Of a stretch of DNA of 13,411 bases, positions 1-13,411 are shown in pieces. Positions within the stretch are counted from its first letter, which is position 1; each line of letters opens with the position of its first letter. The translations under genes were made by a program, and so were the position numbers. Source of the DNA: a virus (Duplodnaviria > Heunggongvirae > Uroviricota > Caudoviricetes); IMG/VR virus record IMGVR_UViG_2548876950_000004, positions 1-13,411 of that record; one strand, written 5' to 3'. A model generated the notes under the pieces. It saw nothing but the letters and a program-made list of their open reading frames with translations. It ran no database searches and was not told where the DNA came from.

Positions 1-54
1 CTGGCAGCCTGAGTTCACAGATAAAACACTCTCCAGGAAACCCGGGGCGGTTCA
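1..54 (-). mobile_element. Terminal inverted repeat of an IS3-family insertion sequence (element body lies left of the window)
   Basis: Positions 2-54 are the exact reverse complement of 13359-13411. Read inward the end begins TGAACCGCCCCGGG, the TG...-type terminus I recall for IS3-family elements such as IS629. The identity runs to the window edge and stops abruptly at 54/55. Confidence 0.5.
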
Positions 55-157
55 AAACGCCCATGATTTTACAGGCTTTTGATACGTTGCTGAGTTCTTC
101 AGCCAGATTGAGCAAACCGGCTTTGTGTTTGATAACGGGATTGGTAGTATGAAGCAT
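55..157 (-). pseudogene. N-terminal fragment of an HTH-type protein, truncated at the IS junction
   Basis: ATG at 155-157 (reverse strand) preceded by GAGGT. Translation MLHTTNPVIKHKAGLLNLAEELSNVSKACKIMGV then runs straight into the IS-end sequence. The LAEELS-VSKACKIMGV stretch looks like the first helices of an HTH motif. Confidence 0.35.
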
Positions 158-280
158 GAGAGTTACCTCGTGTTTTGTATAAGGATTCGACACCCATATC
201 AAAACCGGTAACTCTCAACCTTTCAAGGCTCAGTGTCAGATCAAGTCGCGACTAATACACTCAATTCCATCATAAACTTC

Positions 281-409
281 TCAGTTGTTAGCTTTTGCCG
301 AACTGGAAAGCGCCTGTTTAAACTCACTGAAGCTGAGAGCTTCTTCGCCTTCGGCAAGGCCTTCGAAGTATTCTTCGTAAGCCTTTTTCATGATTGTGTC
401 GAAATCCAT
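281..409 (-). CDS. Small hypothetical protein, 42 aa (possibly YdaG-like)
   Basis: ATG at 407-409 (reverse strand) with AGGTGA 5 nt upstream; translation MDFDTIMKKAYEEYFEGLAEGEEALSFSEFKQALSSSAKANN, stop at 281-283. Below the 60-aa ORF-track cutoff. Sits upstream of the repressor like the small genes of Rac-type prophages. Confidence 0.4.
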   Translation of the reverse strand: MDFDTIMKKAYEEYFEGLAEGEEALSFSEFKQALSSSAKANN

Positions 410-419
410 ATCACTCACC

Positions 420-566
420 TTAGTTTCTTTCCAACCAGCGACGTGCGCCAGCTTCGGTTTTAAACGATTTGCTTTTGGTATACGTCATGGCGGTGAATGT
501 GCCGTCCTGATTGGGAAACACGCCACATACCAGAGATTCGTTGTTGCCAAGATCGATAGTATCCAT
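420..566 (-). CDS. Small hypothetical protein, 48 aa (possibly YdaF-like)
   Basis: Internal start MDTIDLGNNESLVCGVFPNQDGTF... of the 420..629 ORF, with GAGGT 4-5 nt upstream. The longer 69-aa form has no obvious ribosome-binding site. Confidence 0.4.
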   Translation of the reverse strand: MDTIDLGNNESLVCGVFPNQDGTFTAMTYTKSKSFKTEAGARRWLERN

Positions 567-816
567 GTTGACCTCATTTCCCCTTAACGCCGGGTGGCGG
601 AACGTTTTATCTACTGCGCTTTGTATCAATCAACAACTGCCGTCATGTTCGTATGCCTCAGGCTGGCTACTTAGCCCTGTTCAGTGGCTGGATAACTCGA
701 GGTATTGTCCAGCCGTTCTCTGGTGGGGCGTTGTTTGGATATGCTTATTAAACACAATGCGTTTTCTTATGTAAACACGAAATGTGTTTTGTGGTGAGTG
801 TCATATGATGATGGTA

Positions 817-841
817 CAAAAAAGCCCGCTGATAGCGGGCT
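817..841 (-). terminator. Intrinsic terminator downstream of the repressor gene
   Basis: Hairpin AGCCCGCT-GAT-AGCGGGCT (823-841) flanked by an A-run on the plus strand (817-822), which is a U-run after the hairpin on the minus strand. Confidence 0.6.
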
Positions 842-871
842 GATTGGCATATTACTGTGATAGCAAGATCA

Positions 872-1291
872 TTACTCCGGTGGGGGATTATCTTTAAGCC
901 TGCCTCTCAAATATTTTTCTACATACTCATCGATTTCTTTTAGCCGGACTTCAAATAGCTCAATCATTCGTTGTTGTTCTGAGCCAGGTAGCTGGTTAAA
1001 CAACTCAAGAAGTTTTCGTTGGGATTCATTTAACCACAATTCAGAAGATTCCTGTTCTCCAAATAGGAGCTCAGGAGGAGATATGCCAAGTGCCTTTCCC
1101 AATACGACAGCGTCATGCACTCCAACATTTCTGCTGCCCGCCTCATAGTTACCTATACGCGATTGCGTCCATCCGCAGATTTCAGCAAGTTTTCCTTGAG
1201 ATAAACCAAGCTTCTGCCTGCGCTCTTTAAGACGCATTGCAATTTTGTCATTGAGCCTACTAGCGGCAATTTTTTCGTTTTCTTTTTCCAT
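872..1291 (-). CDS. CI-like prophage repressor, XRE-family HTH, 139 aa, no S24 peptidase domain
   Basis: HTH segment LGLSQGKLAEICGWTQSRIGNYEAG; divergently oriented to a Cro-like gene across a 96-bp operator region; C-terminal part is charged/coiled-coil like with no Ser-Lys autocleavage domain. Confidence 0.8.
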   Translation of the reverse strand: MEKENEKIAASRLNDKIAMRLKERRQKLGLSQGKLAEICGWTQSRIGNYEAGSRNVGVHDAVVLGKALGISPPELLFGEQESSELWLNESQRKLLELFNQLPGSEQQRMIELFEVRLKEIDEYVEKYLRGRLKDNPPPE

Positions 1292-1387
1292 TGCATCCTT
1301 GTATCACGAATCGTGATTTACATAAAACACAAAACAGCTTGACCATATAACACAAGGTGTGTTTAAAATTGTCATCGGAGGTTTTCA
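1292..1387. promoter_or_regulatory. Immunity-switch operator/promoter region between divergent repressor and cro-like genes
   Basis: Contains palindrome ATCACGA-A-TCGTGAT (1303-1317), imperfect palindrome AACACA-AGG-TGTGTT (1349-1363) and a TTGACC -35-like hexamer (1336-1341). Confidence 0.6.
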
Positions 1388-1630
1388 ATGAACAAAATTT
1401 CAACATATCGAAAACAGCTTGGGCTGTCTCAAAGACAACTTGCTGTTCAGTTAGGGTGGATACAAAGCCGACTGGCAAATTACGAAGCAAATTTTCGTAC
1501 CCCTGGACTAGAGGAGTGCAGAAAAATTGTTTCTACCCTTAATCGGCTTGGCGCTCATTGTGGACTTGACGATGTATTCCCCCCAGACGGTAAGCATAGC
1601 GAAAACAGCATAGGAGCGGTTGATTCATGA
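1388..1630 (+). CDS. Cro-like HTH regulator, 80 aa (YdaS-like)
   Basis: GGAGG 6 nt upstream of the ATG. HTH LGLSQRQLAVQLGWIQSRLANYEA shares the GW-QSR-NYEA recognition-helix motif with the repressor. Stop overlaps the next start (ATGA at 1627-1630). Confidence 0.75.
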   Translation: MNKISTYRKQLGLSQRQLAVQLGWIQSRLANYEANFRTPGLEECRKIVSTLNRLGAHCGLDDVFPPDGKHSENSIGAVDS

Positions 1631-2049
1631 AAATCAGGCATGAGCACATCGAATCAGTGTTGTTAGCCCTGGCAGCCGAAAAAGGGCAGGCGTGGGTCGC
1701 TAACGCAATTACTGAAGAATATCTGCGCCAGGGGGGCGGCGAATTGCCCCTTGTACCAGGCAAGGACTGGAACAATCAGCAGAATATCTATCACCGTTGG
1801 TTGAAAGGTGAAACGAAAGCGCAAAGGGAAAAAATTCAGAAACTGATCCCTGCGGTTCTGGCAATTCTTCCGCGCGAGCTGCGTCACCGACTCTGCATCT
1901 TCGATACCCTGGAACGCCGTGCATTACTGGCGGCGCAGGAAGCGTTGAGTACGGCAATTGATGCGCATGATGATGCAGTCCAGGCCGTTTACCGGAAAGC
2001 ACATTTCAGCGGTGGTGGGTCGCCCGGCGATTCTGTCGTAGTGCATTGA
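1627..2049 (+). CDS. YdaT/CII-like prophage regulatory protein, 140 aa
   Basis: Translationally coupled to the cro-like gene; N-terminus MKIRHEHIE and the position after cro match my recollection of the Rac ydaS-ydaT arrangement. Identity is from recalled family features only. Confidence 0.5.
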   Translation: MKIRHEHIESVLLALAAEKGQAWVANAITEEYLRQGGGELPLVPGKDWNNQQNIYHRWLKGETKAQREKIQKLIPAVLAILPRELRHRLCIFDTLERRALLAAQEALSTAIDAHDDAVQAVYRKAHFSGGGSPGDSVVVH

Positions 2050-2126
2050 TTGAAATTAATCGTGCCGGATTGTTTTGTTCGGTATCAGTTAAATGTAACG
2101 CTGCGAGCGTTACAAGGTGAAAACAA

Positions 2127-2909
2127 ATGGCTTCAAACTGGATAAAGCTCGAGGTTATTACGCCGGATAAGCCGGAAATATTCAGGCTTGCTGAGATTCT
2201 GAATATTGATCCAGATGCCGCATTAGGGAAGGTTATTCGCTTCTGGGCATGGGCGGATCAACAAATGATAGACGGTAATGCAGATTGTAACGCTCGCGGC
2301 GTTACAAAAAGTGCAATAGATCGCATCACTTTTATGGCTGGTTTTGCTGATGCGTTAATTCAGGTTGGATGGCTGATCGAAAATGACGGTGGGCTTTCTC
2401 TACCTAACTTTGAACGTCATAACGGGAAAAGCTCTAAAAAACGGGCGGTTACAAACGAGCGAGTAACAAAAATACGCGAACTGCAACGAAAAGGTAACGC
2501 TGCCAGCGTTACACAAACGGATCAAAAAGCGTTACCAGAGGAAGAGGAAGATATAAATACTGATCTCCCCCTAAATCCCCCTCGCCAAAAACGAGCGTCT
2601 AAAAAATTCGAGCCGGAGGCTATCGAGCTGCCTGACTGGTTGCCGGAAACACTCTGGCATGAGTGGTTTCAGTTCAGGCAGGCATTGCGAAAACCGATTC
2701 GAACGGAGCAGGGCGCTAACGGGGCGATACGGGAACTGGAAAAATTCCGTCAGCAGGGTTTTACACCTGAGCAGGTGATTCGACACAGCATCGCCAATGA
2801 ATACCAGGGCCTGTTCGCGCCGAAAGGTGTTCGGCCTGAGACGTTGCTCCGACAGGTTAACACCGTCTCGTTGCCGGACAGTGCGATCCCGCCAGGCTTC
2901 AGGGGGTAA
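2127..2909 (+). CDS. Replication initiation/primosomal protein, DnaT-like C-terminus (YdaU-like), 260 aa
   Basis: AGGTGA ribosome-binding site; sits directly upstream of the DnaC-like gene, as in the dnaT-dnaC and lambda O-P arrangements; C-terminal W/F-rich segment DWLPETLWHEWFQFRQALRKP; gene body carries repeated palindromes. Confidence 0.55.
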   Translation: MASNWIKLEVITPDKPEIFRLAEILNIDPDAALGKVIRFWAWADQQMIDGNADCNARGVTKSAIDRITFMAGFADALIQVGWLIENDGGLSLPNFERHNGKSSKKRAVTNERVTKIRELQRKGNAASVTQTDQKALPEEEEDINTDLPLNPPRQKRASKKFEPEAIELPDWLPETLWHEWFQFRQALRKPIRTEQGANGAIRELEKFRQQGFTPEQVIRHSIANEYQGLFAPKGVRPETLLRQVNTVSLPDSAIPPGFRG

Positions 2910-2915
2910 CGGACC

Positions 2916-3662
2916 ATGAAAAATATTGCGACAGGCGGTGTTCTTGAACGTATCCGTAAGCTGGCTCCGCAGCATGTAACCGCGCCGTACCGGACAGTGG
3001 ACGAGTGGCGAGAGTGGCAGCTTGCAGAAGGGCGAAAACGTAGCGAGGAGATCAACCGCCTGAATCGTCAGTTGCGGGTGGAAAAAATTCTGAATCGCTC
3101 AGGCATCCAGCCGTTGCATCGTAAATGCTCGTTTGCAAATTACCAGGTGCAGAACGACGGCCAGCGATACGCGTTAAGCCAGGCGAAATCCATCGCCGAT
3201 GAACTGATGACCGGGGGTACAAATTTTGCGTTCAGCGGAAAACCTGGTACCGGGAAGAACCACTTAGCGGCAGCTATCGGAAATCGCCTGCTGAAAGATG
3301 GCCAGACAGTGATTGTGGTTACTGTGGCTGATGTTATGAGTGCCCTGCATGCCAGCTATGACGACGGACAGTCAGGCGAAAAATTTTTGCGGGAACTGTG
3401 CGAAGTGGATCTGCTGGTTCTTGATGAGATTGGCATTCAGCGCGAGACGAAAAACGAGCAGGTGGTACTGCACCAGATTATTGATCGACGGACAGCGTCG
3501 ATGCGTAGCGTGGGAATGCTGACAAATCTGAACTATGAGGCCATGAAAACATTGCTCGGTGAGCGGATTATGGATCGCATGACCATGAACGGCGGACGCT
3601 GGGTGAATTTTAACTGGGAGAGCTGGCGTCCGAATGTCGTCCAGCCAGGAATTGCGAAGTAA
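2916..3662 (+). CDS. DnaC-like helicase loader, AAA+ ATPase (IstB/DnaC family), 248 aa
   Basis: Walker [16 protein letters not shown] and Walker [10 protein letters not shown]; size and placement after the initiator gene. Confidence 0.85.
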
Positions 3663-3684
3663 TTTTTACCGGGAGAAAAATTTA

Positions 3685-4446
3685 ATGGAGACTGTTTTTG
3701 ACGCACTGAAAGCAATGGGAAAAGCCACATCCATAGAACTTGCTGCGCGACTTGATATCAGTCGTGAAGAGGTACTGAACGAGCTGTGGGAACTGAAAAA
3801 AGCTGGTTTTGTTGATAAAACCGCGTACACCTGGCGCGTGGCTGAAAACAACGTTCAGCAGGAACAGTCAGCGCAGGCAGAACTGCCGGAAGAAACCACC
3901 ACAGCAACAGTAGCGAAAATCTCAGAGTGCGATTTAACCGCAACGATTGAACAACGCGGACCACAAACGGCTGATGAGCTGGCTACATTGTTTGATACCA
4001 CATCACGCAAAGTGTCTTCAACGCTGGCAATGGCAATCAGCAAAGGTCGTCTGATTCGCGTAAATCAGGGCGGTAAATTTCGTTACTGCATACCGGGCGA
4101 TAATTTACCAGCAGAGCCGAAAGCAGCATCGGTAGCGGAAACTGATGGTAAAGCCTTTCCTCAGCCTGCATGTGTTGCGTTACCAGTACAGGAAGCTGCA
4201 ACACAGGAAGATATTAAAACAGAAACGATGGCGGACATTGTGCAGTCGCTGCCATCGTTTACTGCAACGCGATCTGATGATTTGATTTTGCCATCGCTGC
4301 ATTTGGCAAACCGCGAACTGCGTCGGGCGAAAAATCATGTCCAGAAGTGGGAGCGTGTCTGCGCCGCGCTGCGTGAGTTGAACAAGCACAGGGATATTGT
4401 ACGACAGATTACTGATTCTTCCCGCCATGTTGCATCGGAAAAGTGA
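3685..4446 (+). CDS. Hypothetical phage protein with two winged-helix-like segments, about 253 aa
   Basis: Start chosen at ATG 3685 (GGGAGA upstream) to avoid overlap with the DnaC-like gene. Segments [30 protein letters not shown] and [35 protein letters not shown] resemble winged-helix DNA-binding folds. Confidence 0.55.
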
Positions 4447-4461
4447 TTGCCGGAGGCGCTT

Positions 4462-4854
4462 ATGGCAAAAGTATTTACACAAGAAGAGCGGGAAGAAGTG
4501 AAGGCGCGCATTGTGGAATTCGTGCGCCTGAGCGGACGAGAAACTTTTCGACAACTGGCAGATAAAACGGGTGTCAGTAAGACCGCTATTCGTCGTTTAT
4601 CTGGTGCGCTTGCGGCCAGTGGTGATGTCTGGCTCTCTGGTTGCGGGGTATTTCCATCAGAGCAGGCGTATCGCGTATGGCGTAAGACACCGGAGAAGGC
4701 TGCTGACCCGACACTGATTCGAAAGTTACCTGACGGAGAAATACGTCGTTACAACAGACGGCAGAACATAATTTGTCGTGAGTGCCGCCAGAGCGAAGTT
4801 ATGCAGCGTGTGCTGGCGTTCTATCGGGGAAACTTTCAGGAGGTGATGTTGTGA
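4462..4854 (+). CDS. Hypothetical HTH-containing protein, about 130 aa
   Basis: GGAGG 5 nt upstream of ATG 4462; HTH-like FRQLADKTGVSKTAIRRLSG; stop overlaps the next gene's start. Confidence 0.5.
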   Translation: MAKVFTQEEREEVKARIVEFVRLSGRETFRQLADKTGVSKTAIRRLSGALAASGDVWLSGCGVFPSEQAYRVWRKTPEKAADPTLIRKLPDGEIRRYNRRQNIICRECRQSEVMQRVLAFYRGNFQEVML

Positions 4855-5324
4855 GTGAGTCGGCTACCATTCTCGACATGTGCTGTGGCAGTCGCATGTT
4901 CTGGTTTGATAAGAATGACGAACGGGCGATATTTAGCGATATCAGAAAAGAAGAGCACACATTGTGTGATGGACGACGCCTGATTATCAGTCCTGACCTG
5001 ATAGCAGATTTTCGAGCATTACCATTTGCAGACGCATCGTTTCCGGTTGTTGTATTCGACCCTCCGCATCTTGAGCGTGTTGGTGATAACGCCTGGATGG
5101 GAAAGAAATATGGACGGCTGAATAAAGATACCTGGCGAGATGATTTGCGGCAGGGATTTAAAGAAGCCTTTCGTGTGTTGTGCCCACGCGGCGTTCTGAT
5201 TTTTAAATGGAATGAAACGCAAATACCTGTTCGCCAGATATTGGTACTGACCGACAGAAAACCTGTTATCGGTCAACGAACAGGAAAAAACGATAAAACC
5301 CACTGGATTATTTTTATGAAATAG
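4851..5324 (+). CDS. Putative small SAM-dependent DNA methyltransferase (N6-adenine type, DPPH motif), about 157 aa
   Basis: GTG start at 4851 with AGGAGG 6 nt upstream. Motif I-like ILDMCCGSRMF followed by motif IV-like VVFDPPHL, the order seen in gamma-type amino-methyltransferases. Confidence 0.45.
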   Translation: MSESATILDMCCGSRMFWFDKNDERAIFSDIRKEEHTLCDGRRLIISPDLIADFRALPFADASFPVVVFDPPHLERVGDNAWMGKKYGRLNKDTWRDDLRQGFKEAFRVLCPRGVLIFKWNETQIPVRQILVLTDRKPVIGQRTGKNDKTHWIIFMK

Positions 5325-5572
5325 GCATCCAGTGAGTAGGTTCGTAAGGTTACAGATGCGTATATCTGAATAATTAAATTCAGTTCTGTAAATAAAATTT
5401 AATCCTTAACCGGAGGGATTCCTGCACCCTCAGAACATCAGGAGACCGCCCGAAAGGGCGGTAATGAAAAATGGCTGAATGAACCAAATGGCTACAAAAC
5501 ACGATTACCGGAATTGAAACGGTAGTAGACGATAAATCGTTTGTATGTGATGAAATAGTATTCAAAATCGAT

Positions 5573-5938
5573 GTGGTTAAAAACGTACTTACCGCATTTA
5601 AAGTCGCGCTGGTATCGCTGGAAGCCGAACCGGTGACATGGCGATATCGCTACGTGAGAAAAGGCGTTACGAACTTTCAGGAGAAGCCGTGGGTTGGTGA
5701 CTGGAAATATGTACCGACAAAAGAGGATTGCAACGACAGGCCGAACTATGAAATTCAGGCGTTATTCACGGCCCAGCCTGTGCCACTGACACCCGAAGGA
5801 TTGATTAAAGCGGTGCGCTTCTATGAACAGGTTAAGAGTGAAAATCCGCCAGTCGAAACCGGAGCATGGAAAGACGCTGTTGACTGGGTGCTCAAAGAGG
5901 CTTGTCAGGCTGTAAACATTGGCATCAAAGGAGAGTGA
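5573..5938 (+). CDS. Hypothetical protein, 121 aa, start uncertain
   Basis: Long ORF with no internal Met; GTG start at 5573 lacks a clear ribosome-binding site. Leads a co-oriented, tightly packed cluster. Confidence 0.45.
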   Translation: MVKNVLTAFKVALVSLEAEPVTWRYRYVRKGVTNFQEKPWVGDWKYVPTKEDCNDRPNYEIQALFTAQPVPLTPEGLIKAVRFYEQVKSENPPVETGAWKDAVDWVLKEACQAVNIGIKGE

Positions 5939-5939
5939 G

Positions 5940-6131
5940 ATGAACGGACAAATCTCAATTGTTCGACCGGGAGCATGTGACGATTGCGAGATACGAATGA
6001 TTATTCGTCTGGCGATGGGGAAAACAATAACTGCTCTCATTACTCCAGAAAATCTCGCATTAGCATTAACAGGAAAGTCAGACCTGCCAGTAGAGCTAAA
6101 GCTGCGAAATGTTGAGATTAAGGTGAAATAG
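5940..6131 (+). CDS. Hypothetical protein, 63 aa
   Basis: ATG at 5940 with AAGGAGAG 5 nt upstream, two bases after the upstream stop; ends 2 bp before the next gene. Confidence 0.5.
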   Translation: MNGQISIVRPGACDDCEIRMIIRLAMGKTITALITPENLALALTGKSDLPVELKLRNVEIKVK

Positions 6132-6133
6132 CT

Positions 6134-7555
6134 ATGACCACTATTACCAAAGAGCGACTGCTGACAATCAAGCAGTGGCGCGAAACATACGGACCTGGTA
6201 GCAACGTTGTACTGCCAGCAGAAGAAGCGGAAGAACTGGCACGGATTGCACTGGCATCATTGGAAGCAGATCCAGTTAAACGAGTTAACTCAGATCAGAT
6301 GCACCGAGTCTGCTTAGAAGCTAATCGCTATTTAGATAAATATGACGCGATGGCGAAAGAGGTAAATAAGTTGCTTGGACGCATCGCCCCGCCAGCGCCA
6401 GTATTTAACGGCGAATACGGTGACGCATATCAGGGCGCTCGTGAAGACCTGTCCATCTGGAAACGGCGAGCGCTTGAAGCTGATGAGCACGTTCGGCGAC
6501 TGGAGCAAATCAATGACCACATGGTGAAAGAGGCGCAGGGAGAATCACGCATGGGCGAGCCTGTAATACGTGAGCCAGCACCGGTAGTGCCTGAAGAAGC
6601 AACTCCGGAAAACGTAGAAATGCTCTCTGGCTATGTTTCAACGTACAAATTAACCGATAGCGAGCGCGATATTGCTGCCGAAATATGGAACGCCTGCCGC
6701 GCCGCCATGCTTCAGTCAGGAAACTTTCGGGAAAACAAGAATTCGTCAACCAATAATTTTCGGGAAATCGAGGAAACGTCAACCAACTATCCGGCAATTC
6801 CTAGTGAGGTGTTGTCCGCAATCCTGAAGGTTGCCAGGATTCGTGCCGATTTCGATGATTTTGACGGTGACAGGCGAGGTATCGGTGATTGTCTGGATGA
6901 GGCTGAGCAAGAGCTTATCGTTACCATTAACAAATATGCCAGTCAGTTGGCAGCAGAACCGATAGCGACTAATGACGTTCGAGAGCAGCAGACAGCCGTT
7001 CCGCCAGTTCCGGAAATACAGGCTGATGTCGCGCAAGCAATTGAAAATCTCAAGCAGAAGCTAGTGGAATGTAATCGCTATAACTACTGCGCAGATGCAG
7101 TTAAAGGCGTAGAGGATGCCTGCCGTGCTGTTAGCTATAGCCAAGCCGACAATCAACCAGCATCTGGCAACCAGGCTGCCGAATCCAATCGCGGTAATGA
7201 GTGGACCGGCAATCCTGATATTGATAACGCCATCATCATGCTCGACCGCATAGATACGCTGGAAAATTGCGATGATGACCGTATTGAGGCTGTTAAGGCT
7301 GTTTTGCGTAGACTGGCTGGCAACTATCCGGTAACTCCGGATGGTTGGATAAGCTGTAGTGAGCGAATGCCGAATACCAAAACAGCCGTTCTTGTTGCCG
7401 TGGAGTTTGACAGGAAAGGTGACTGGCGAATGAAATGGGCTACTTACATCCCGGGGCATCCTGACGCTAATGATGGGTGGATAATTCCTGGTGCGTCGTG
7501 GAAACCGTCACACTGGATGCCGCTACCAGAACCGCCGCAGGAGGTGCGCCAATGA
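6134..7555 (+). CDS. Large hypothetical phage protein with DUF551-like C-terminus, 473 aa
   Basis: AAGGTGA ribosome-binding site; acidic, low-complexity central region; C-terminal WISCSERMP...SHWMPLPEPP matches the recalled DUF551 signature. Confidence 0.6.
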   Translation: MTTITKERLLTIKQWRETYGPGSNVVLPAEEAEELARIALASLEADPVKRVNSDQMHRVCLEANRYLDKYDAMAKEVNKLLGRIAPPAPVFNGEYGDAYQGAREDLSIWKRRALEADEHVRRLEQINDHMVKEAQGESRMGEPVIREPAPVVPEEATPENVEMLSGYVSTYKLTDSERDIAAEIWNACRAAMLQSGNFRENKNSSTNNFREIEETSTNYPAIPSEVLSAILKVARIRADFDDFDGDRRGIGDCLDEAEQELIVTINKYASQLAAEPIATNDVREQQTAVPPVPEIQADVAQAIENLKQKLVECNRYNYCADAVKGVEDACRAVSYSQADNQPASGNQAAESNRGNEWTGNPDIDNAIIMLDRIDTLENCDDDRIEAVKAVLRRLAGNYPVTPDGWISCSERMPNTKTAVLVAVEFDRKGDWRMKWATYIPGHPDANDGWIIPGASWKPSHWMPLPEPPQEVRQ

Positions 7556-7635
7556 TCTGGCCTGAAGCCTTTGCAATTACAGGCGTTGCTATAGCTATTG
7601 ATTTTTTAGTATATGTTATTTGTCGGTGGGGGTAA
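7552..7635 (+). CDS. Tiny hydrophobic peptide, 27 aa
   Basis: ATG overlaps the upstream stop (ATGA) with GGAGGTG upstream; translation MIWPEAFAITGVAIAIDFLVYVICRWG is a single predicted transmembrane helix. Below ORF-track cutoff. Confidence 0.4.
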   Translation: MIWPEAFAITGVAIAIDFLVYVICRWG

Positions 7636-7670
7636 AAACGTTCGCCGGGATTCACACCAAAGGAGGGAAT

Positions 7671-7775
7671 ATGTCGGATGATATTTCACTGGCAATGGAA
7701 GGTGCGCTGGCTGTTATTGCTGTTGTGGGCGTTTACTGCCTGGTTGTGTTTTTGATGGATCGACTAGGGAACTGA
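7671..7775 (+). CDS. Tiny hydrophobic peptide, 34 aa
   Basis: AAAGGAGGGAAT-ATG; translation MSDDISLAMEGALAVIAVVGVYCLVVFLMDRLGN with a central hydrophobic helix. Below ORF-track cutoff. Confidence 0.45.
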   Translation: MSDDISLAMEGALAVIAVVGVYCLVVFLMDRLGN

Positions 7776-7783
7776 ATTCATTA

Positions 7784-7805
7784 CGATATGGGAATTCCCA
7801 TATCG
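7784..7805. repeat. Perfect 22-bp palindrome CGATATGGGAATTCCCATATCG
   Basis: Exact self-complement with a central GAATTC, 9 bp after the 34-aa peptide stop and upstream of the hok locus; no T-run follows, so not a classical terminator. Confidence 0.7.
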
Positions 7806-7909
7806 GGTAAAAACGGTTTGCGGTAAAGCGAGAGTTAAGTAGAATTGCTGCGGGTGCTTGAGGCTATCTGCCTCGGGCATGCCACCGTAAGGCAGACAGA
7901 GAAAAGCCC

Positions 7910-7975
7910 CAGTTAACATTACGCGTCCGGCAAGACGCTTAACATTAATCTGAGGCCATATCTATGCTCTACACA
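7910..7975 (-). ncRNA. Expected position of the Sok-like antisense RNA of the hok locus (approximate, not delimited)
   Basis: Placed by analogy with hok/sok architecture, where the antisense RNA overlaps the leader and upstream start region. Promoter and 3' end could not be pinned from sequence. Confidence 0.25.
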
Positions 7976-8020
7976 CGTAGGTTAGCCTCTTACGTGCCGA
8001 AAGGCAAGGAGAAGCAGGCT

Positions 8021-8176
8021 ATGAAGCAGCAAAAGGCGATGTTAATCGCCCTGATCGTCATCTGTTTAACCGTCATAGTGACGGCACTGGTAACGAGGAA
8101 AGACCTCTGCGAGGTACGAATCCGAACCGGTCAGACGGAGGTCGCTGTCTTCGTAGACTACGAATCTGAGAAGTAA
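8021..8176 (+). CDS. hok: Hok/Gef-family type I toxin, 51 aa; in-frame upstream start at 7964 gives a 70-aa Mok-like form
   Basis: MKQQKAMLIALIVICLTVIVTALVTRKDLCEVRIRTGQTEVAVFVDYESEK has the hallmark Hok/Gef transmembrane segment and TRKDLCEV...GQTEVA motif; AGGAG upstream of ATG 8021. Confidence 0.8.
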   Translation: MKQQKAMLIALIVICLTVIVTALVTRKDLCEVRIRTGQTEVAVFVDYESEK

Positions 8177-8244
8177 GAGACCAGGCGGGGGAGTAATCTC
8201 CCGCCACCTCTGATGTGTCAGGCATCCTCAACGCACCCGCACTA

Positions 8245-8267
8245 AACCCGCTTCGGCGGGTTTTTTG
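8245..8267 (+). terminator. Intrinsic terminator at the 3' end of the hok transcript
   Basis: Hairpin AACCCGC-TTCG-GCGGGTT followed by TTTTTTGTT; a second GC-rich hairpin lies just upstream (about 8192-8210). Confidence 0.7.
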
Positions 8268-8451
8268 TTGCGTGCTGAATGCGCAGGGTGAAAAATAACC
8301 ATATATTTGATTATATACACAACAAAAAATAAAAGTCATTGTACCTGCACATTAAATAATCAAATATACAGCGTGAAATAAATATTTTTCAGATTAATAT
8401 TTTTGTCTCTATGTGGATATAACCGTTTGTACTTATAAACTCGGAGGCATC

Positions 8452-8664
8452 GTGGAAAAAATAAAGAAACTATTTAGTTGCAAATACGCAGTCATACGTC
8501 GTGATGACCTGTCAGTTATAGTCGAAATGGATTACTTCCCTGAAACCCCAAAATCAATGATGTATCGTAATGGTCGAAAGGCAATTTTTTTACCGATGAG
8601 GGTAAGTGACATTATGGGAAATGATAAACTGCTGGATGAATTGCGAGTCAGAGCATCCTGTTAG
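8452..8664 (+). CDS. Hypothetical protein, about 70 aa
   Basis: GTG at 8452 with GGAGG 4 nt upstream, preferred over the ATG at 8413 which lacks a ribosome-binding site; AT-rich promoter-like region upstream. Confidence 0.45.
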   Translation: MEKIKKLFSCKYAVIRRDDLSVIVEMDYFPETPKSMMYRNGRKAIFLPMRVSDIMGNDKLLDELRVRASC

Positions 8665-8735
8665 TATTGGCATTAATTCTGGTATACTACATAACGGGCT
8701 GAACACCCATTCTACTGCGCCAGCGGAGAACTACG

Positions 8736-9335
8736 ATGGCGCATATACAACTGGTCAAACAAACCTCTTCCGGATTACTTCTCCCGGCGACACCGGAGAG
8801 TTGCGATTTTTTGCATCAAATCAAAATAGGCGAGTGGATACACGCAGACTTTAAGCGTGTGCGTAACTACGCATTCCACAAGCGTTTTTTCAAACTCCTG
8901 CAACTGGGATTCGATTACTGGACTCCGGTCGGTGGGGCGATCACGCCTCGCGAACGAGAACTGCTGTCTGGTTTCGTTGATTACCTGTGCGAATCAGTTG
9001 GTCGGGAACACACGCCAGCCCTGAGTGATGCCGCAGAGCAATATCTGAATACAGTTGCGACACGCAGAACCCGGGATACGGCATTGTTAAAGTCGTTTGA
9101 GGCTTTTCGCGAGTGGGTAACCATTCAGGCTGGATTTTACACCGAACATTTTTATCCGGACGGTAGCCATGGGCGTCGGGCGAAATCCATCGCTTTTGCG
9201 AATATGGACGAAACCGAGTTTCAGCAGGTTTATAAATCTGTTCTGAATGTGCTGTGGAACTGGATTCTGTTCCGTAAATTTTCCTCTCCGGAACAAGTCG
9301 AAAATGTGGCCGCGCAGCTGCTGGAGTTTGCGTAA
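8736..9335 (+). CDS. Conserved lambdoid nin-region protein, 199 aa
   Basis: GGAGA 6 nt upstream of the ATG; stop overlaps the next start (TAATG); family assignment (DUF1367-like) is from memory only. Confidence 0.55.
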   Translation: MAHIQLVKQTSSGLLLPATPESCDFLHQIKIGEWIHADFKRVRNYAFHKRFFKLLQLGFDYWTPVGGAITPRERELLSGFVDYLCESVGREHTPALSDAAEQYLNTVATRRTRDTALLKSFEAFREWVTIQAGFYTEHFYPDGSHGRRAKSIAFANMDETEFQQVYKSVLNVLWNWILFRKFSSPEQVENVAAQLLEFA

Positions 9336-9625
9336 TGGTGGATTTACGTAAAGCGGCGCGGGGGCAGATGTGCACCGTCAGAATTCCTGGCTACTGCAAT
9401 CACGATCCGGAAACGTCTGTGCTGGCGCATTACCGACTGGCGGGAACGTGCGGAACAGCGATAAAGCCACACGATATGCAGGCAGCGATTGCCTGTAGCT
9501 CGTGCCACGATTTAATCGACGGGCGGGTAAAAACCGGCGATTACACCAAAGAAGAATTACGCCTGATGCATGCAGAAGGTGTTTTTCGCACACAAGAAAT
9601 CTGGAGAAAGGAGGGATATTTATGA
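9335..9625 (+). CDS. YbcO-like (DUF1364) cysteine-rich protein, putative nuclease, 96 aa
   Basis: Size and several cysteines (CTVRIPGYC...CGT...ACSSCHD) fit the YbcO family that sits before Q in lambdoid prophages; translationally coupled on both sides. Confidence 0.55.
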   Translation: MVDLRKAARGQMCTVRIPGYCNHDPETSVLAHYRLAGTCGTAIKPHDMQAAIACSSCHDLIDGRVKTGDYTKEELRLMHAEGVFRTQEIWRKEGYL

Positions 9626-10176
9626 TTTACCCAACGAATACAGGAAAAAGCGGAGAACACCTTCGTCTCACCACGCTGGAAAGTGTCTGGATTCAGGGAA
9701 AACTACGTATGTGGGGGCGCTGGTCGTATATTGGCGGCGGTAAGACGGGAAATATGTTTAACCAGTTGCTGACCTCTAAAAAGCTAACAAAAACGGCAAT
9801 TAATGAGGCGCTCCGGAGGATGAAAAAAGCAGGTCTGGACAAACCTGAACTTGAGGCTTTTTTGCGGGATATGATCAACGGCAAGCAAAAAAGCTGGCTG
9901 GTGCATTGTACTGATGCAGAGGCGTTATGCATTGATCGGGTGATTAGTGAAGTGCTGGCAGAACACCCAGGATTGATTTGTATCCTCCGGCAAAGATATG
10001 AAGGGCGGGGGATGAGTAAGCGCAAAATGGCTGAATTGCTAAATGATGCACACCCTGAGTGGTGTTTTCGGACGTGCTGCAGTCGGGTAGATGTATGGCT
10101 AAATCTTGCTGAATATATGCTCTATCTGCCGATGCGTGATGCATTCTCTTCCGGGTATTTAAAAACTGTCTGTTGA
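9622..10176 (+). CDS. Putative late-gene antiterminator Q, 184 aa
   Basis: Called mainly from position: last gene of the nin-like block, immediately followed by a strong promoter overlapping its stop and a short terminated leader. Strong AAAGGAGGG ribosome-binding site. Sequence family not confirmed. Confidence 0.5.
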   Translation: MIYPTNTGKSGEHLRLTTLESVWIQGKLRMWGRWSYIGGGKTGNMFNQLLTSKKLTKTAINEALRRMKKAGLDKPELEAFLRDMINGKQKSWLVHCTDAEALCIDRVISEVLAEHPGLICILRQRYEGRGMSKRKMAELLNDAHPEWCFRTCCSRVDVWLNLAEYMLYLPMRDAFSSGYLKTVC

Positions 10177-10202
10177 CTCAATCTGTTATCCGGGGCTATA
10201 TT
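10173..10202 (+). promoter_or_regulatory. PR'-like late promoter (TTGACT-N18-TATATT)
   Basis: -35 TTGACT at 10173-10178 overlaps the stop of the upstream gene; -10 TATATT at 10197-10202. Confidence 0.55.
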
Positions 10203-10264
10203 CCTCACGCGCCAGCAAAATCTGGCGTCGGGATTAGGAACCCCGGATAGAGACCGCGACAGAC

Positions 10265-10287
10265 ACACGCCGCGAGCGTGTTTTTTA
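10265..10287 (+). terminator. tR'-like intrinsic terminator ending a short (about 80 nt) leader RNA
   Basis: Hairpin ACACGC-CGCGA-GCGTGT followed by TTTTTTATT, about 60-80 nt downstream of the PR'-like promoter. Confidence 0.65.
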
Positions 10288-10449
10288 TTGTCGTATGCAC
10301 GCGCACATCTGAATTATGGTGGGGCGTATGGGGGAGCTGAAAAGCTCGCCGGTTGGTTTCCCGGTAGTTCCTAACCCTGTACGTCTCACCACCCGATGAT
10401 TAGGAACCTGACGGTGGTGATGGTTTAGAAACCACCAGAGGGCGTCATT

Positions 10450-11031
10450 ATGACAACTCAAATTTCTGTTGAAACTCTCTCCCCGATCACCCATAACCAG
10501 ATTCCTGTTATTACCACCGAACTTTTGGCGCAGTTGTACGGTGCTGGAGTTAAGAACATTCAAAATAACTACGCCAGAAATGCTGAGCGCTTTATTGAAG
10601 GAAAGCATTTTTTCAAAGTGGCTGGCGATGCCCTGAAAAATTTGCGGGTAGCTTTAAACTACTCACAAAATTTGCAACCATCTTTAAGAGGGTTACAAAT
10701 TTCCCCGAAAGCCCGCTCCCTCATCCTCTGGACAGAACGCGGAGCAGCCCGTCATGCCAAAATGCTGGAAACCGATCAGGCGTGGGATGTGTTCGAAAAG
10801 CTGGAAGACTGCTATTTCAGACAAAAGGATCCGTCAGCGCCAGTTTCATGCCAGAAAAGTTACGACACGCGAGTTCTCTGTTATCAGAGAGGCGGTGTCA
10901 CTGTTTCCACAATTCAGTTACGGGATGATGATATTGTTATTTCCCTTGAGTCATGGCTGGAACTGGCGAGAGCCAATGGTTGGTTTGTTGTTCGCAGAGA
11001 TAAACTGGTGGAAAGGTTGATGCAGCTTTAA
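10450..11031 (+). CDS. ORF6N/KilA-N-like domain protein (antirepressor-type regulator), 193 aa
   Basis: N-terminal IPVITTELLAQLYGAGVKNIQNNYARNAERFIEGKHFFKV matches the recalled ORF6N consensus (LAELYG...RN..RF...F). Confidence 0.55.
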   Translation: MTTQISVETLSPITHNQIPVITTELLAQLYGAGVKNIQNNYARNAERFIEGKHFFKVAGDALKNLRVALNYSQNLQPSLRGLQISPKARSLILWTERGAARHAKMLETDQAWDVFEKLEDCYFRQKDPSAPVSCQKSYDTRVLCYQRGGVTVSTIQLRDDDIVISLESWLELARANGWFVVRRDKLVERLMQL

Positions 11032-11128
11032 AAAAGTTCTTGCATTTTTGCACATAAACTGCTTCAATTCCTGTATGCTTCGCAAAGCTGTATCGCGAGG
11101 CGAAACGCAAGTTTTTTTCGCACAAGGA

Positions 11129-11151
11129 AGCCACCGGAAGGTGGTTTTTTT
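11129..11151 (+). terminator. Intrinsic terminator after the ORF6N gene
   Basis: Hairpin CCACC-GGAA-GGTGG followed by TTTTTTT. Confidence 0.65.
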
Positions 11152-11274
11152 GTGTCCGTAATATACAGCAGCGCAATAAATTCGCTGGTGGTTATTAATA
11201 CCGTTCTTTCAGCTTGCTGGCTTTTTCGACAAGAGTTATTGGTATGTCACGTTAACCGGAAAGGGTAAAAAGAC

Positions 11275-11472
11275 ATGCTGAAACAGCAGGATATGACAGA
11301 AACCGCCAGAGTTGTGTTTGATGAATTAAGCGTTACCGAACCGGCGACAGTCGGGGAGATTGCGCAGAATACTTACCTTTCACGCGAACGCTGCCAGTTA
11401 ATACTGACCCAGCTGGTTATGGCGGGTCTGGCAGACTATCAGTGCGGTTGTTACAGACGCATTCAGTCCTGA
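11275..11472 (+). CDS. Small putative DNA-binding protein, 65 aa
   Basis: ORF with a weak AAGGG ribosome-binding site; the VGEIAQNTYLSRERCQLILTQLVMAGL segment looks like a winged-helix/HTH. Confidence 0.4.
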   Translation: MLKQQDMTETARVVFDELSVTEPATVGEIAQNTYLSRERCQLILTQLVMAGLADYQCGCYRRIQS

Positions 11473-11505
11473 AGGCTTTTTATTTGTGGTAAATGGGCGG
11501 CTGGT

Positions 11506-11513
11506 GGGGGGGG
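11506..11513. repeat. Homopolymeric G8 tract upstream of the AraC-family gene
   Basis: Eight consecutive G (GGTGGGGGGGGCGG) about 95 bp upstream of the ATG at 11608. Confidence 0.8.
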
Positions 11514-11607
11514 CGGCACCTGTCAGTCCTTTGCTTATGTGTTGATGATAATTTACCTTTTGGGGCTATAATTGAGCTAACCAATTGCTAATGAAAGTAA
11601 AATTATA

Positions 11608-12321
11608 ATGGCTGTTGTCTGTTCAGTTATCATGGTTTGCTCCCCAATTAATATTTTTCTTGAAAAGGATACGTTGTCACTTAAGCCAGGCTCAGTCGTT
11701 CTGGCCACCAAATGCATCAGGGAGCTTTTCCTTATGCATTATGGCAAAGTTAAAATTGTCGATATAAGCGAATCCGTCGTAAGTCAATATCTGGAAAGTC
11801 AGCATAAGCTGACGAGGACTCGTCTGACTGACATTCCGCTTTACCTGTTGCTGGAACCCAACAATCCTGCGTTGGCTGCGGCTTTAATTACCAGCCAGGG
11901 ATTTTCCGGAGAGGTCACGGATATGTTTCTTATGATGGCCTGCCTGTCTCTGTTTGAAACAGATGAACGGATGTCATTGTTTTTAAGTGGATGTTTATCC
12001 AGCATAAGTGCCAAAGTCAGGGCGATAATTCAGACAGATATATCAGCAAGCTGGACGCTTGGTGCGATTGCTCTACAGTTGCATATGAGTGAGAGTTTGT
12101 TAAAGACAAAACTGAAAAATGAAGGGGGCATGTTCAGTCGCTTGTTGCTGGAAGAGCGGATGCGTGTTGCTGTAAATATGTTATGTTCCCGGCATGGATA
12201 TGGACAGGCTGTAGCAGAAAAATGCGGTTATTCAAGCAGGTCCTACTTTATTTCTGTATTTCACCGCTATTATGGCTTCCCGCCAGACAGATATGTATCC
12301 AGGCAAGGGCTTGATTATTGA
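11608..12321 (+). CDS. AraC/XylS-family transcriptional regulator, 237 aa
   Basis: C-terminal double-HTH typical of the family (SWTLGAIALQLHMSESLLKTKLK...YGQAVAEKCGYSSRSYFISVFHRYYGFPP); located in the cargo slot between Q and the lysis genes. Confidence 0.75.
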   Translation: MAVVCSVIMVCSPINIFLEKDTLSLKPGSVVLATKCIRELFLMHYGKVKIVDISESVVSQYLESQHKLTRTRLTDIPLYLLLEPNNPALAAALITSQGFSGEVTDMFLMMACLSLFETDERMSLFLSGCLSSISAKVRAIIQTDISASWTLGAIALQLHMSESLLKTKLKNEGGMFSRLLLEERMRVAVNMLCSRHGYGQAVAEKCGYSSRSYFISVFHRYYGFPPDRYVSRQGLDY

Positions 12322-12349
12322 TTTTCATCTGATTATTATTTTTTGGCTC

Positions 12350-12425
12350 GGCCCTTTAGCTCAGTGGTGAGAGCGAGCGACTCATAATCGCCAGGTCGCT
12401 GGTTCAAATCCAGCAAGGGCCACCA
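12350..12425 (+). tRNA. tRNA with CAU anticodon (Ile2/Met type, ileX-like)
   Basis: Cloverleaf by hand: acceptor GGCCCTT/AAGGGCC, anticodon loop CTCATAA, T-loop TTCAAAT, 3' CCA. Close to the host ileX sequence as I recall it. Confidence 0.7.
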
Positions 12426-12426
12426 A

Positions 12427-12503
12427 CCGCCACTAGCTCATCAGGAAAGAGCGTCAACCCTTTAAGTTGAGTGTGCGAGGTTCGAGTCCCCGGTGGCGGT
12501 CCA
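12427..12503 (+). tRNA. Atypical tRNA-like gene, anticodon UUU (Lys-like), possibly a pseudo-tRNA
   Basis: Acceptor CCGCCAC/GTGGCGG with CCA end, D-arm and TTCGAGT T-loop present, but C at position 33, a C1:G72 start and one T-stem mismatch. Confidence 0.45.
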
Positions 12504-12505
12504 GT

Positions 12506-12581
<76 letters not shown>

Positions 12582-12584
12582 TAT

Positions 12585-12659
<75 letters not shown>

Positions 12660-12866
12660 GTTAGAGTCTTTCAGTCTGCGATGATGGGAAATCCCGGAGT
12701 GACTGAAAGACGTTTAGGTTATGAATGATCGCTTTTTTTTGCAAAATTGCTGTGCAGAAATACTAACCTTCGGGCAGGCGATCATTCATAAGCACTCTGC
12801 TTTTATTCCGATTAACTGTGGGTGGTTTGTTGGATAGAGTGCTTTCCTGACTGTAGATCCAATTTC

Positions 12867-12891
12867 GCCCGCTTTTGCGGGCTTTTCTTTT
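12867..12891 (+). terminator. Intrinsic terminator downstream of the tRNA cluster
   Basis: Hairpin GCCCGC-TTTT-GCGGGC followed by TTTTCTTTT. Confidence 0.7.
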
Positions 12892-12951
12892 CAAATCCCT
12901 TTCATCTCTCAGTGTAAAACTACGCCATCCGTTATTTGCGGAGGTGAGGCT

Positions 12952-13167
12952 ATGAAATCCATGGACAAAATTTCAACGGGCATTGCCTACGGCACCTCCG
13001 CAGGCAGTGCTGGCTACTGGTTTTTACAGTGGCTTGATCAAGTCAGTCCGTCACAGTGGGCTGCGATTGGTGTACTGGGGAGTCTGATTCTGGGCTTCCT
13101 GACTTATCTGACAAATCTGTACTTCAAAATCAGAGAAGACAAGCGTAAGGCTGCACGGGGAGAGTAA
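12952..13167 (+). CDS. Phage 21-type class II holin (pinholin) with dual-start motif, 71 aa
   Basis: [27 protein letters not shown]...[13 protein letters not shown] closely matches S21 as I recall it, including the M-K-S-M dual start (12952 and 12961); GGAGGTGAGG ribosome-binding site. Confidence 0.85.
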
Positions 13168-13171
13168 TTCA

Positions 13172-13358
13172 ATGACTCAAAACTATGAAGTGATTGTGAA
13201 AGGGATCCGCAATTTTGAGAATAAAGTTACGGTAACTTTAGCGTTACGGGACAAAAAACGCTTTGACGGTGAAATTTTTGACCTGGACATCTCGCTGGAC
13301 CGTGTTGAAGGTGCCGCGCTGGAGTTTTATGAGGCAGCAGCCAGAAGGAGCATCAGAC
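13172..13358 (+). pseudogene. Lysis-region gene (possibly YdfR-like) truncated by the IS insertion
   Basis: ATG at 13172 with GGGGAGAG upstream; ORF MTQNYEVIVKGIRNFENKVTV... runs in frame into the IS-end sequence at 13359 with no stop before the window edge. Family name from memory only. Confidence 0.4.
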
Positions 13359-13411
13359 TGAACCGCCCCGGGTTTCCTGGAGAGTGTTTTATCTGTGAAC
13401 TCAGGCTGCCA
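13359..13411 (+). mobile_element. Terminal inverted repeat of an IS3-family insertion sequence (element body lies right of the window)
   Basis: TGAACCGCCCCGGGTTTCCTGGAGAG..., the exact reverse complement of window positions 2-54. Confidence 0.5.

Follow-up and report, generated by a model that had tools for sequence, protein, structure and literature searches.

In the immunity region immI of phages P1 and P7, the C4 RNA pairs through its a' and b' segments with the a2/b2 sites and silences ant, and a few bases, matching in all three sites, set the specificity of heteroimmunity. The immI genes c4, icd and ant give a single transcript with the order a1, C4 (a', b'), a2/b2 and antirepressor gene. 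RF01695 and RF03163 are the Rfam families of this system (Weinberg et al. 2010, PMC2864571). At the isrK locus of Gifsy-1 (antQ-isrK-orf45/STnc1160-anrP-isrJ; Hershko-Shalev et al. 2016, PMC4825925), the promoter PisrK makes the IsrK RNA of 77 nucleotides (nt), and some transcripts run into orf45-anrP-isrJ, from which STnc1160, an RNA of about 80 nt, is processed. IsrK activates anrP translation in trans, and AnrP turns on the antQ operon (PMC4825925). The promoter and the terminator of isrK were shown experimentally in the same paper, in which neither a late promoter nor a qut site is mentioned as a topic (PMC4825925). A Q cassette is defined by the Q gene, the late promoter PR', a promoter-proximal -10-like pause element, a terminator and the late genes (PMC9388147). 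Here we analysed a window of 13,411 nt (IMG/VR virus record IMGVR_UViG_2548876950_000004, positions 1 to 13,411), in which three units appear to be stacked on the plus strand: the gene of a Q-like late-gene antiterminator (9622-10176), an inserted C4/antirepressor cassette (about 10173-11031) and a displaced late promoter of the Q family with its terminator (11040-11152). Homologues were found for all of these parts, and we give this reading a probability of about 0.7.

The Q-like gene encodes 184 amino acids (aa; protein accession WP_000640148.1). Its ATG at 9622 overlaps the stop codon of the upstream YbcO-like gene (ATGA), its TGA is at 10174-10176, and it sits between nin-type genes and lysis genes. 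The sequence-only reading had called the protein Q and held that the assignment rested on position, not sequence; sequence matches now also back it. The protein matched Pfam DUF1133 over its full length (1.2e-106) and PHROG 753, 'anti-termination protein Q-like' (2.3e-80). In the profile comparison with the Q families (Q21, PF06530; Q-lambda, PF03589; Q82, PF06323), it passed PF06530 narrowly, with 27.5 bits at a gathering cut-off of 26. Searching the PDB with the sequence alone reached Q21 structures only at E 0.018, and a profile of 23 members from 20 species matched the Q21 structures 6p18_P and 6jnx_P at E 3.7e-6. This match is collinear and covers the N-terminal W..G.L..WG.W motif and residues 94-183. 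PGAP labels the product 'DUF1133 family protein', and several phage records carry a DUF1133 protein under the annotation Q. In a survey of Shiga toxin (Stx) phages, DUF1133 is listed among the Q genes as 'Q antiterminator (HHPred)' (PMC8136144). An AlphaFold2 model built with 27 aligned close relatives was poor (predicted local distance difference test, pLDDT, 57; predicted TM-score, pTM, 0.39), and a Foldseek search of the PDB with it gave only meaningless hits (best E 2.8). From these matches, the 184-aa protein is probably an antiterminator of the Q type and a distant relative of Q21, belonging to the DUF1133 branch within the Q21 superfamily.

Directly at the end of this gene lies a sigma-70 promoter of the PisrK type (10173-10202, plus strand), in which TTGACT (10173-10178) and TATATT (10197-10202) are separated by 18 nt and match the consensus at 10 of 12 positions; the TGA stop of the gene falls inside the -35 hexamer. 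Transcription would start at 10209, and an intrinsic terminator, with a GC-rich stem of 6 pairs (10265-10281) and T6 (10282-10287), begins 62 nt past the -10, so that the RNA would be about 79 nt long. The sequence-only reading had noticed a promoter overlapping the stop codon, a terminator 60-80 nt later and a holin about 2.8 kilobases (kb) downstream, and each was found (the holin is 2.78 kb from the promoter). It had interpreted the unit at 10173-10287 as the lambda-like PR'/qut/6S/tR' of the 184-aa Q, whereas our analysis identifies it as the PisrK/IsrK of a C4/antirepressor cassette. The observation was correct and its label partly wrong.

The consensus match of this promoter is at the chance level (17 promoter-like sites in the window and 17.5 in shuffles), and the PisrK/IsrK unit is credible because of its homology. 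Rfam isrK matched 10209-10286 with 69.4 bits (gathering score 50; E 1.9e-13), and Rfam c4-a1b1 matched 10196-10249 with 47.8 bits, above its gathering score. As compared with Gifsy-1, IsrK is 85% identical, the stretch from -35 to -10 is 90% identical, and the terminator hairpin is identical. The IsrK-like small RNA (10209-10287, plus strand) consists of a 5' hairpin, a second hairpin and the terminator. A site corresponding to a1, GATTAGGAAC (10232-10241), lies in the loop of the second hairpin. A -10-like sequence, CAAAAT, is located near the promoter, at about +8 to +13, in a hairpin loop.

The DNA that follows contains the remaining parts of the cassette. A C4-type antisense RNA (10312-10396, plus strand), the counterpart of STnc1160/'orf45' of Gifsy-1, matched Rfam C4 (RF01695) with 67 bits at a gathering score of 45 and is 85% identical to the Gifsy-1 RNA; the position of STnc1160 is that of the Rfam C4 match. 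Its minimum free energy is -42.9 kcal/mol (z -4.5). In this fold, a' (AGTTCCTAA, 10366-10374) is single-stranded, and b' (TCACCACC, 10386-10393), which is complementary to b2, forms part of the 3' arm. The 5' untranslated region (UTR) of the antirepressor gene (10398-10449) carries a2 (GATTAGGAAC, 10398-10407) and b2 (GGTGGTGA, 10413-10420), and its hairpin GGTGGT/ACCACC adjoins the Shine-Dalgarno sequence. An identical stretch of 11 nt, GATTAGGAACC, which is GATTAGGAAC extended by (C), is common to a1 and a2. The complementary core between a1/a2 and a' is exact over 8 nt (TTAGGAAC/GTTCCTAA), and each of a1, a2 and b2 in the window is matched by an exact 8-nt complement in C4. The antirepressor-like gene itself (10450-11031, plus strand; here called ant) encodes 193 aa with an ORF6N domain (Pfam 4e-19; PHROG 2379 'anti-repressor' 1e-90). 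It is a homologue of Gifsy-1 AnrP/STM2616 (54% identity, E 3e-67), with the ORF6N domain in both.

The pairing sites were compared among six aligned cassettes and 24 more from IMG/VR. At least six variants of the a-specificity were present (AGGAAC, GGCGT, GGAAC, AGCAC, GGTCTC and TGCACC), and in every cassette any change in a1 is shared by a2 and by the reverse complement of a'. In locus L005, b2 and b' covary as well (GGTGGCGA with TCGCCACC). Judged from these sequences, the region of about 10173-11031 is a C4-antisense-RNA/antirepressor cassette made of IsrK, C4 RNA, the a2/b2 target and an ORF6N antirepressor, and its pairing follows the P1/P7 immI logic with a specificity code. The order a1, C4, a2/b2 and antirepressor gene on one transcript is shared with P1/P7. 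The window differs from P1/P7 in several respects: its antirepressor is an ORF6N protein, and there is no icd-like open reading frame (ORF) with its ribosome binding site in b2, since after b2 only the two-codon ATG-GTT-TAG precedes the next real ORF, ant at 10450. Moreover, a1 would lie on a separate terminated small RNA, IsrK, which by analogy with Gifsy-1 activates and is not only a target, no b1 was found, and the host of the cassette is a lambdoid prophage, not a P1-like plasmid prophage. In phage P4, the CI RNA with seqA/seqC is likewise an antisense RNA that is processed from a transcript carrying a complementary target copy on either side of it. The P4 RNA acts by premature transcription termination of replication genes, and the match in the window is to Rfam C4, not to P4 CI. 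The authors of the Gifsy-1 study noted IsrK as a structural homologue of SeqA (PMC4825925).

With Gifsy-1 the window has the same order of parts, namely a Q gene ending with its TGA inside the PisrK -35, IsrK, a C4-like RNA, an ORF6N antirepressor and a second short terminated RNA unit. The two loci differ in the a1/a'/a2 specificity (AGGAAC in the window, GGCGTC in Gifsy-1) and in their Q proteins, PF06323 (Q82 family) in Gifsy-1 and DUF1133 (Q21-like) in the window, which are unrelated and functional analogues at most. They differ also in the small ORF: the stop codon of Gifsy-1 orf45 overlaps the start of anrP, whereas the equivalent in the window has 27 codons, ends 51 nt ahead of ant and is uncoupled from it. 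Both the length and the frame of this ORF vary among cassettes (16, 27, 33 or 45 codons, or open). The unit behind the antirepressor gene is IsrJ in Gifsy-1 and an element of the DUF1133 family in the window.

This element, at 11040-11079 on the plus strand, is the best candidate for PR' in the window. It consists of TTGCAT (11040-11045), a spacer of 17 nt ending in the extended -10 motif TGc (11060-11062), TTCAAT (11063-11068) and, after 5 nt, TATGCT (11074-11079). Transcription would start at about 11075. The leader and a strong intrinsic terminator follow (11075-11156, plus strand), with a hairpin at about 11120-11155 whose core is GCCACCGGAAGGTGG plus U7; the fold of 11075-11156 has -36.7 kcal/mol (z -5.6). 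Because this promoter/leader/terminator element sits at 11040-11152, the terminator that had been listed at 11129 becomes the best candidate for tR'. The sequence TATGCT is a candidate sigma-dependent pause element, at which the polymerase would pause soon after initiation. If the first transcribed base is 7 nt beyond the -10, TAnGCT would cover about -1 to +5, and the lambda pause element lies in much the same place relative to the start; the sequence detail of lambda PR' was used for this comparison. The leader core GCTTCGCAAAGCTGTATCGCGAGGCG (11077-11102) is identical to the DNA directly behind Q in the cassette-free phage vB_EcoS-683R6. The bases just upstream of the 11040 -35 (aaaaagttc) resemble the last Q codons of the L013 type and look like the footprint of an older Q-PR' junction. 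It is speculation that the spacer TTGCATTT/TTGCACAT (11040-11055) contains a direct repeat serving as a Q site.

Comparison of related loci gave the general form of the element: TTGnnn, 17 nt ending in TGn, TT(G/C/A)AAT, 5 nt, TAnGCT, a leader of 45-110 nt and a strong terminator. Among the genome and phage loci that were compared (L002-L029), 24 had the exact spacing, and the layout of gene, promoter, -10-like element and terminator is kept in more than 100 DUF1133 loci. In 730 kb of related loci the pattern occurred 103 times, always on the Q strand, and it was absent from shuffles; in the window it had exactly one hit, at 11040. Across 36 distinct sequences TAnGCT is invariant, and so is the G of TGn, which the pattern did not require. 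The 11040-type element is therefore regarded as an extended -10 promoter, because its spacer ends in the invariant TG one base before the -10. We rejected the possibility that TAnGCT is the true -10, because no -35-like hexamer is present 16-18 nt upstream, and divergent classes all retain TTGnnn/17 nt/TGn-TTnAAT. For the leader from 11075, a claim of conserved small hairpins was also rejected, because the variants disrupt pairing without compensation. The element was found in 1407 of 5426 complete genomes of E. coli, about a quarter.

The element is strictly linked to the DUF1133 Q gene, as was seen in an IMG/VR sample of 80 viral contigs or loci with this Q. Among the 56 cassette-free loci, in which Q has 180 aa, 55 offer enough DNA, and each of these 55 has the element across the stop codon of Q. 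In the cassette-bearing loci (n=24, Q of 184 aa), it lies 835-891 nt past the stop codon, behind ant, again in all of those with enough DNA (23/23). The window belongs to the cassette-bearing class, with its element about 0.87 kb past the Q stop codon and behind ant. Among the genome and phage loci, L015 is a case in which Q and the element are separated by a module of the hok/sok type and not by the C4 cassette. In L005 and L006 an insertion sequence (IS) interrupts ant, and the downstream element is shifted past the fetched flank; we rejected these two as loci without the element, because the IS moves the rest beyond that flank.

The unit at 11040-11152 fits the Q-cassette layout, and it has the layout of lambda PR'/qut/6S/tR' and of the Q21 cassette of phage 21 (Yin et al. 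2019, 10.1101/651190; Yin et al. 2022, PMC9388147). Shared with these are Q, the promoter, a -10-like sequence at the predicted transcript start (here a candidate pause element), a short leader and a terminator before the lysis genes. The window differs from them in the extended -10 promoter and in about 0.86 kb of inserted DNA that splits the Q gene from PR'. As observations beside this element, Rfam STnc100 was located downstream of Q/PR' in L001 (11115-11374), L008 (5289-5475), L012 (6120-6249) and L016 (4739-4930), and Rfam AsxR downstream of Q/PR' in VT2-Sakai; neither occurs in the window.

The same cassette was found away from this Q. The Stx phage VT2-Sakai carries the same promoter and RNAs in its nin region, where ninE-like orf33 and roi flank the cassette and the phage's own Q21-type Q follows only 2.5 kb further downstream. 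The Salmonella prophage L007 has two IsrK/C4 cassettes (1290-1476 and 4588-4768), one in the nin region and one behind Q, with the specificities TGCACC and GGTCTC. The same promoter heads the VT2-Sakai cassette and both cassettes of L007. In Gifsy-1 the cassette follows AntQ (STM2617), a Q of the PF06323 Q82 family, and BLASTP of AntQ against the Q protein of the window revealed no similarity (E 5.4). From this distribution in sequenced loci, the C4/antirepressor cassette is a mobile unit. As a separate observation, PP818812.1 (Actinobacillus phage vB_Apl-pPE4) contains Q, cassette and PR' region at 14680-16483 with 91% DNA identity and 98% identity of the Q protein. The record is attributed to Actinobacillus pleuropneumoniae, an odd host for a lambdoid module of the E. 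coli type, and it may be mislabelled or a contaminant.

These occurrences bear on the interpretation that the promoter at 10173 is the PR' of the 184-aa Q, with the 79-nt RNA as a 6S-like leader and Q reading through the terminators at 10265, 11129 and 12867 to the holin. The promoter does adjoin Q, with its -35 overlapping the stop codon like the family promoter in cassette-free relatives; a short terminated RNA would be produced, the exact fusion of Q and cassette is present in 24 of the 24 184-aa Q genes from IMG/VR, and CAAAAT occupies about +8 to +13. However, the same promoter and RNA head the cassettes without an adjacent Q in the nin regions of VT2-Sakai and L007, and in Gifsy-1 a 90%-identical promoter is preceded by a non-homologous Q82-type Q. 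A Q-specific binding site at PisrK is unlikely because unrelated Qs (DUF1133 and Q82-type) share this promoter. CAAAAT is a hairpin loop in the c4-a1b1 consensus, so that its conservation needs no Q, and the family element is intact behind the cassette in 23/23 loci. Since the cassette promoter thus occurs both away from Q and behind an unrelated Q, the 10173 promoter is not taken as PR' of this Q, and we regard that assignment as improbable. Of the late transcription that the sequence-only reading had drawn through 10265, 11129, 12867 and the cargo region, the crossing of terminators and cargo ahead of the holin is supported, and the start at 10173 is not.

A comparable displacement may have occurred in Gifsy-1. 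In that prophage (L032, 33406-33530, minus strand) the IsrJ promoter, TTGCAA-17-TATATT, begins at the anrP stop codon. The IsrJ promoter and the 5' part of IsrJ are homologous to DNA that overlaps the 3' ends of Q-annotated genes in cassette-free phages of Klebsiella, Enterobacter and E. coli. On the basis of this homology, IsrJ may represent a likewise displaced PR' leader belonging to a Q82-type cassette. IsrK, STnc1160 and IsrJ are abundant in lysogens without lytic transcription (PMC7067206), and the high level of IsrJ is consistent with early termination of transcripts from a constitutive PR'. When positions 9900-11700 were searched permissively against Rfam (E up to 5), no isrJ-like RNA was detected behind ant, and the unit at 11040-11152 is therefore considered a positional analogue of IsrJ and not a homologue.

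The DUF1133 protein could instead be some other DNA-binding regulator and the downstream element the ordinary promoter of a small RNA. The similarity to Q21 is marginal, the fold model is poor, and NCBIfam has no model for the protein (nor for ant or the 65-aa ORF described below). The Q21 match nevertheless runs collinearly through both the WG.W motif at the N terminus and residues 94-183, the gene is found where Q is expected, and the strict layout of gene, promoter, -10-like element and terminator in more than 100 loci is the one that defines a Q cassette (PMC9388147). We consider this explanation very improbable.

From the arrangement of the three units, with the cassette fused to the end of the Q gene and the Q stop codon within the cassette's own -35, the following mechanism is proposed. 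The activity of PisrK, the read-through of its terminator, the activation of ant by IsrK and the repression by C4 are taken by analogy from Gifsy-1 and P1/P7. In the lysogen, PisrK would yield mostly the 79-nt IsrK, ending at a leaky terminator, and the read-through fraction would carry the C4 RNA and the antirepressor mRNA. C4 would bind with a' and b' to a2/b2 in the ant 5' UTR and keep ant silent. The a1 site of IsrK, an exact copy of a2, would compete for C4, and when IsrK exceeds C4, a' would be titrated and ant translated. Ant would then inactivate a prophage repressor and lift repression, and Q would be made from the early rightward operon. If the 184-aa protein has antitermination activity, Q would load on RNA polymerase at the 11040 element and carry it past the terminator at about 11150. 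The modified polymerase would cross the 65-aa ORF, the YdeO/GadX-like regulator gene, the tRNA genes and the terminator at 12867, and the late transcript would reach the holin 1.9 kb from the start of the 11040 promoter.

The two promoters may also be coupled, either because Q acts at both units or because late control includes the cassette. Polymerase from PisrK, for example, that leaks past the IsrK terminator might be modified at the downstream 11040 element, or early transcripts through Q might feed ant expression. The long PisrK transcript of Gifsy-1 (about 910 nt) spans anrP to the IsrJ terminator (PMC4825925), the equivalent transcript in the window would extend from 10209 to about 11152, and in two Q families that are not related to each other, the cassette separates Q from the family promoter. 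However, as defined for lambda and phage 21, Q loading requires a complex that contains sigma and is paused shortly after initiation at PR' (PMC9388147), a requirement that a complex coming in from 0.87 kb further upstream would not be expected to satisfy. Such coupling has, in our estimation, a low probability.

Several points weigh against the reading of three stacked units and the mechanism built on it. The -10 (TTCAAT) and the -35 (TTGCAT) of the 11040 promoter are weak, and a simple promoter scan did not list this site. Where the Q gene of a relative is longer, its coding DNA includes the -35 and the -10, and the protein could drive part of the conservation. We infer Q loading at 11040 from linkage and layout only. 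The link between DUF1133 and Q21 is weak (27.5 bits; E 3.7e-6 by profile), and the AlphaFold model, at pLDDT 57, is too poor for a fold comparison with Q21. A b1 site complementary to b' was looked for in IsrK and not found. The Gifsy-1 mechanism needs translation of orf45 coupled to anrP, and the 27-codon orf45 of the window is uncoupled; the control of ant must therefore differ in detail from Gifsy-1. Finally, the prophage is defective, with IS1203 at both ends and truncated lysis genes, and the circuit may not matter for lysis here.

E. coli strain Z1323CEC0019 has in its chromosome a defective lambdoid prophage (Rac/Qin-like) to which the window is 100% identical and which is flanked by two IS1203 copies, one per end; O145 RM9872 is another strain with this prophage. 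The window itself ends in IS1203 (1-62 and 13357-13411), and a 23-nt sequence, CCGGGTTTCCTGGAGAGTGTTTT, is found at 45-33 on the minus strand and at 13368 on the plus strand. The gene after the holin and one lysis gene beyond it are truncated, and the prophage is considered defective for this reason. Because IS1203 cuts the lysis region, the circuit in this strain is probably a remnant.

From 7.8 kb, the gene order is hok/sok, DUF1367, the YbcO-like gene and the 184-aa gene, followed by the ORF6N gene, the 65-aa ORF and the AraC-family gene, and then by four tRNA genes, the S21-type holin and the truncated lysis genes. The hok/sok toxin-antisense module (7852-8176; Rfam sok 112.6 bits; Hok/Gef ORF 8021-8176) precedes the nin-type genes. 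Behind the tR' candidate, the 65-aa ORF (11275-11472) comes first, with a weak winged-helix (TrmB) match and a strong match to PHROG 331 (function not assigned). The AraC-family regulator (11608-12321) is nearest to YdeO/GadX, with NCBIfam matches of 1e-30 and 5e-25, both under the cut-offs. Its gene has its own promoter-like site (11545-11572) and is cargo between the tR' candidate and the tRNA genes; the product may be a prophage-encoded regulator of acid resistance or of the locus of enterocyte effacement (LEE) in pathogenic E. coli. Four consecutive tRNA genes (12350-12659), with a promoter-like site ahead of them (12311-12339), are located just upstream of the holin. ARAGORN types them as Met(CAT), Lys(TTT), Thr(TGT) and Gly(TCC), and PGAP gives the first one as tRNA-Ile. 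A second intrinsic terminator (12867-12890, plus strand) precedes the holin (12952-13167), which matches Pfam Phage_holin_2_1.

The components of this locus, a Q21-like Q, an IsrK/C4/antirepressor cassette and a lambda-style PR'-tR' unit, are of already-known kinds and introduce no new principle. Three points are modestly new: the cassette is here joined to a Q family unrelated to the one in Gifsy-1, a candidate late promoter can be named for the DUF1133 Q family, and IsrJ-type RNAs are viewed as PR' leaders. A promoter and a short terminated RNA behind Q are insufficient for calling PR', as here they are a look-alike from an inserted cassette. The clean three-way covariation ties Salmonella IsrK to the C4 paradigm of P1/P7, and from the conserved sequences a candidate late control element can be proposed for the DUF1133 Q family. 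It is a tentative idea, to which we give somewhat less than even odds, that the cassette was captured repeatedly at one spot, between Q and PR' of both the DUF1133 and the Q82-type families and with the Q stop codon in the cassette -35, as a selected architecture. If this holds, early transcription across Q would enter the anti-immunity switch and provide positive feedback on induction, and IsrJ and the RNA of about 11075-11152 would be 6S-like PR' leader transcripts of Q cassettes and not stand-alone regulators.

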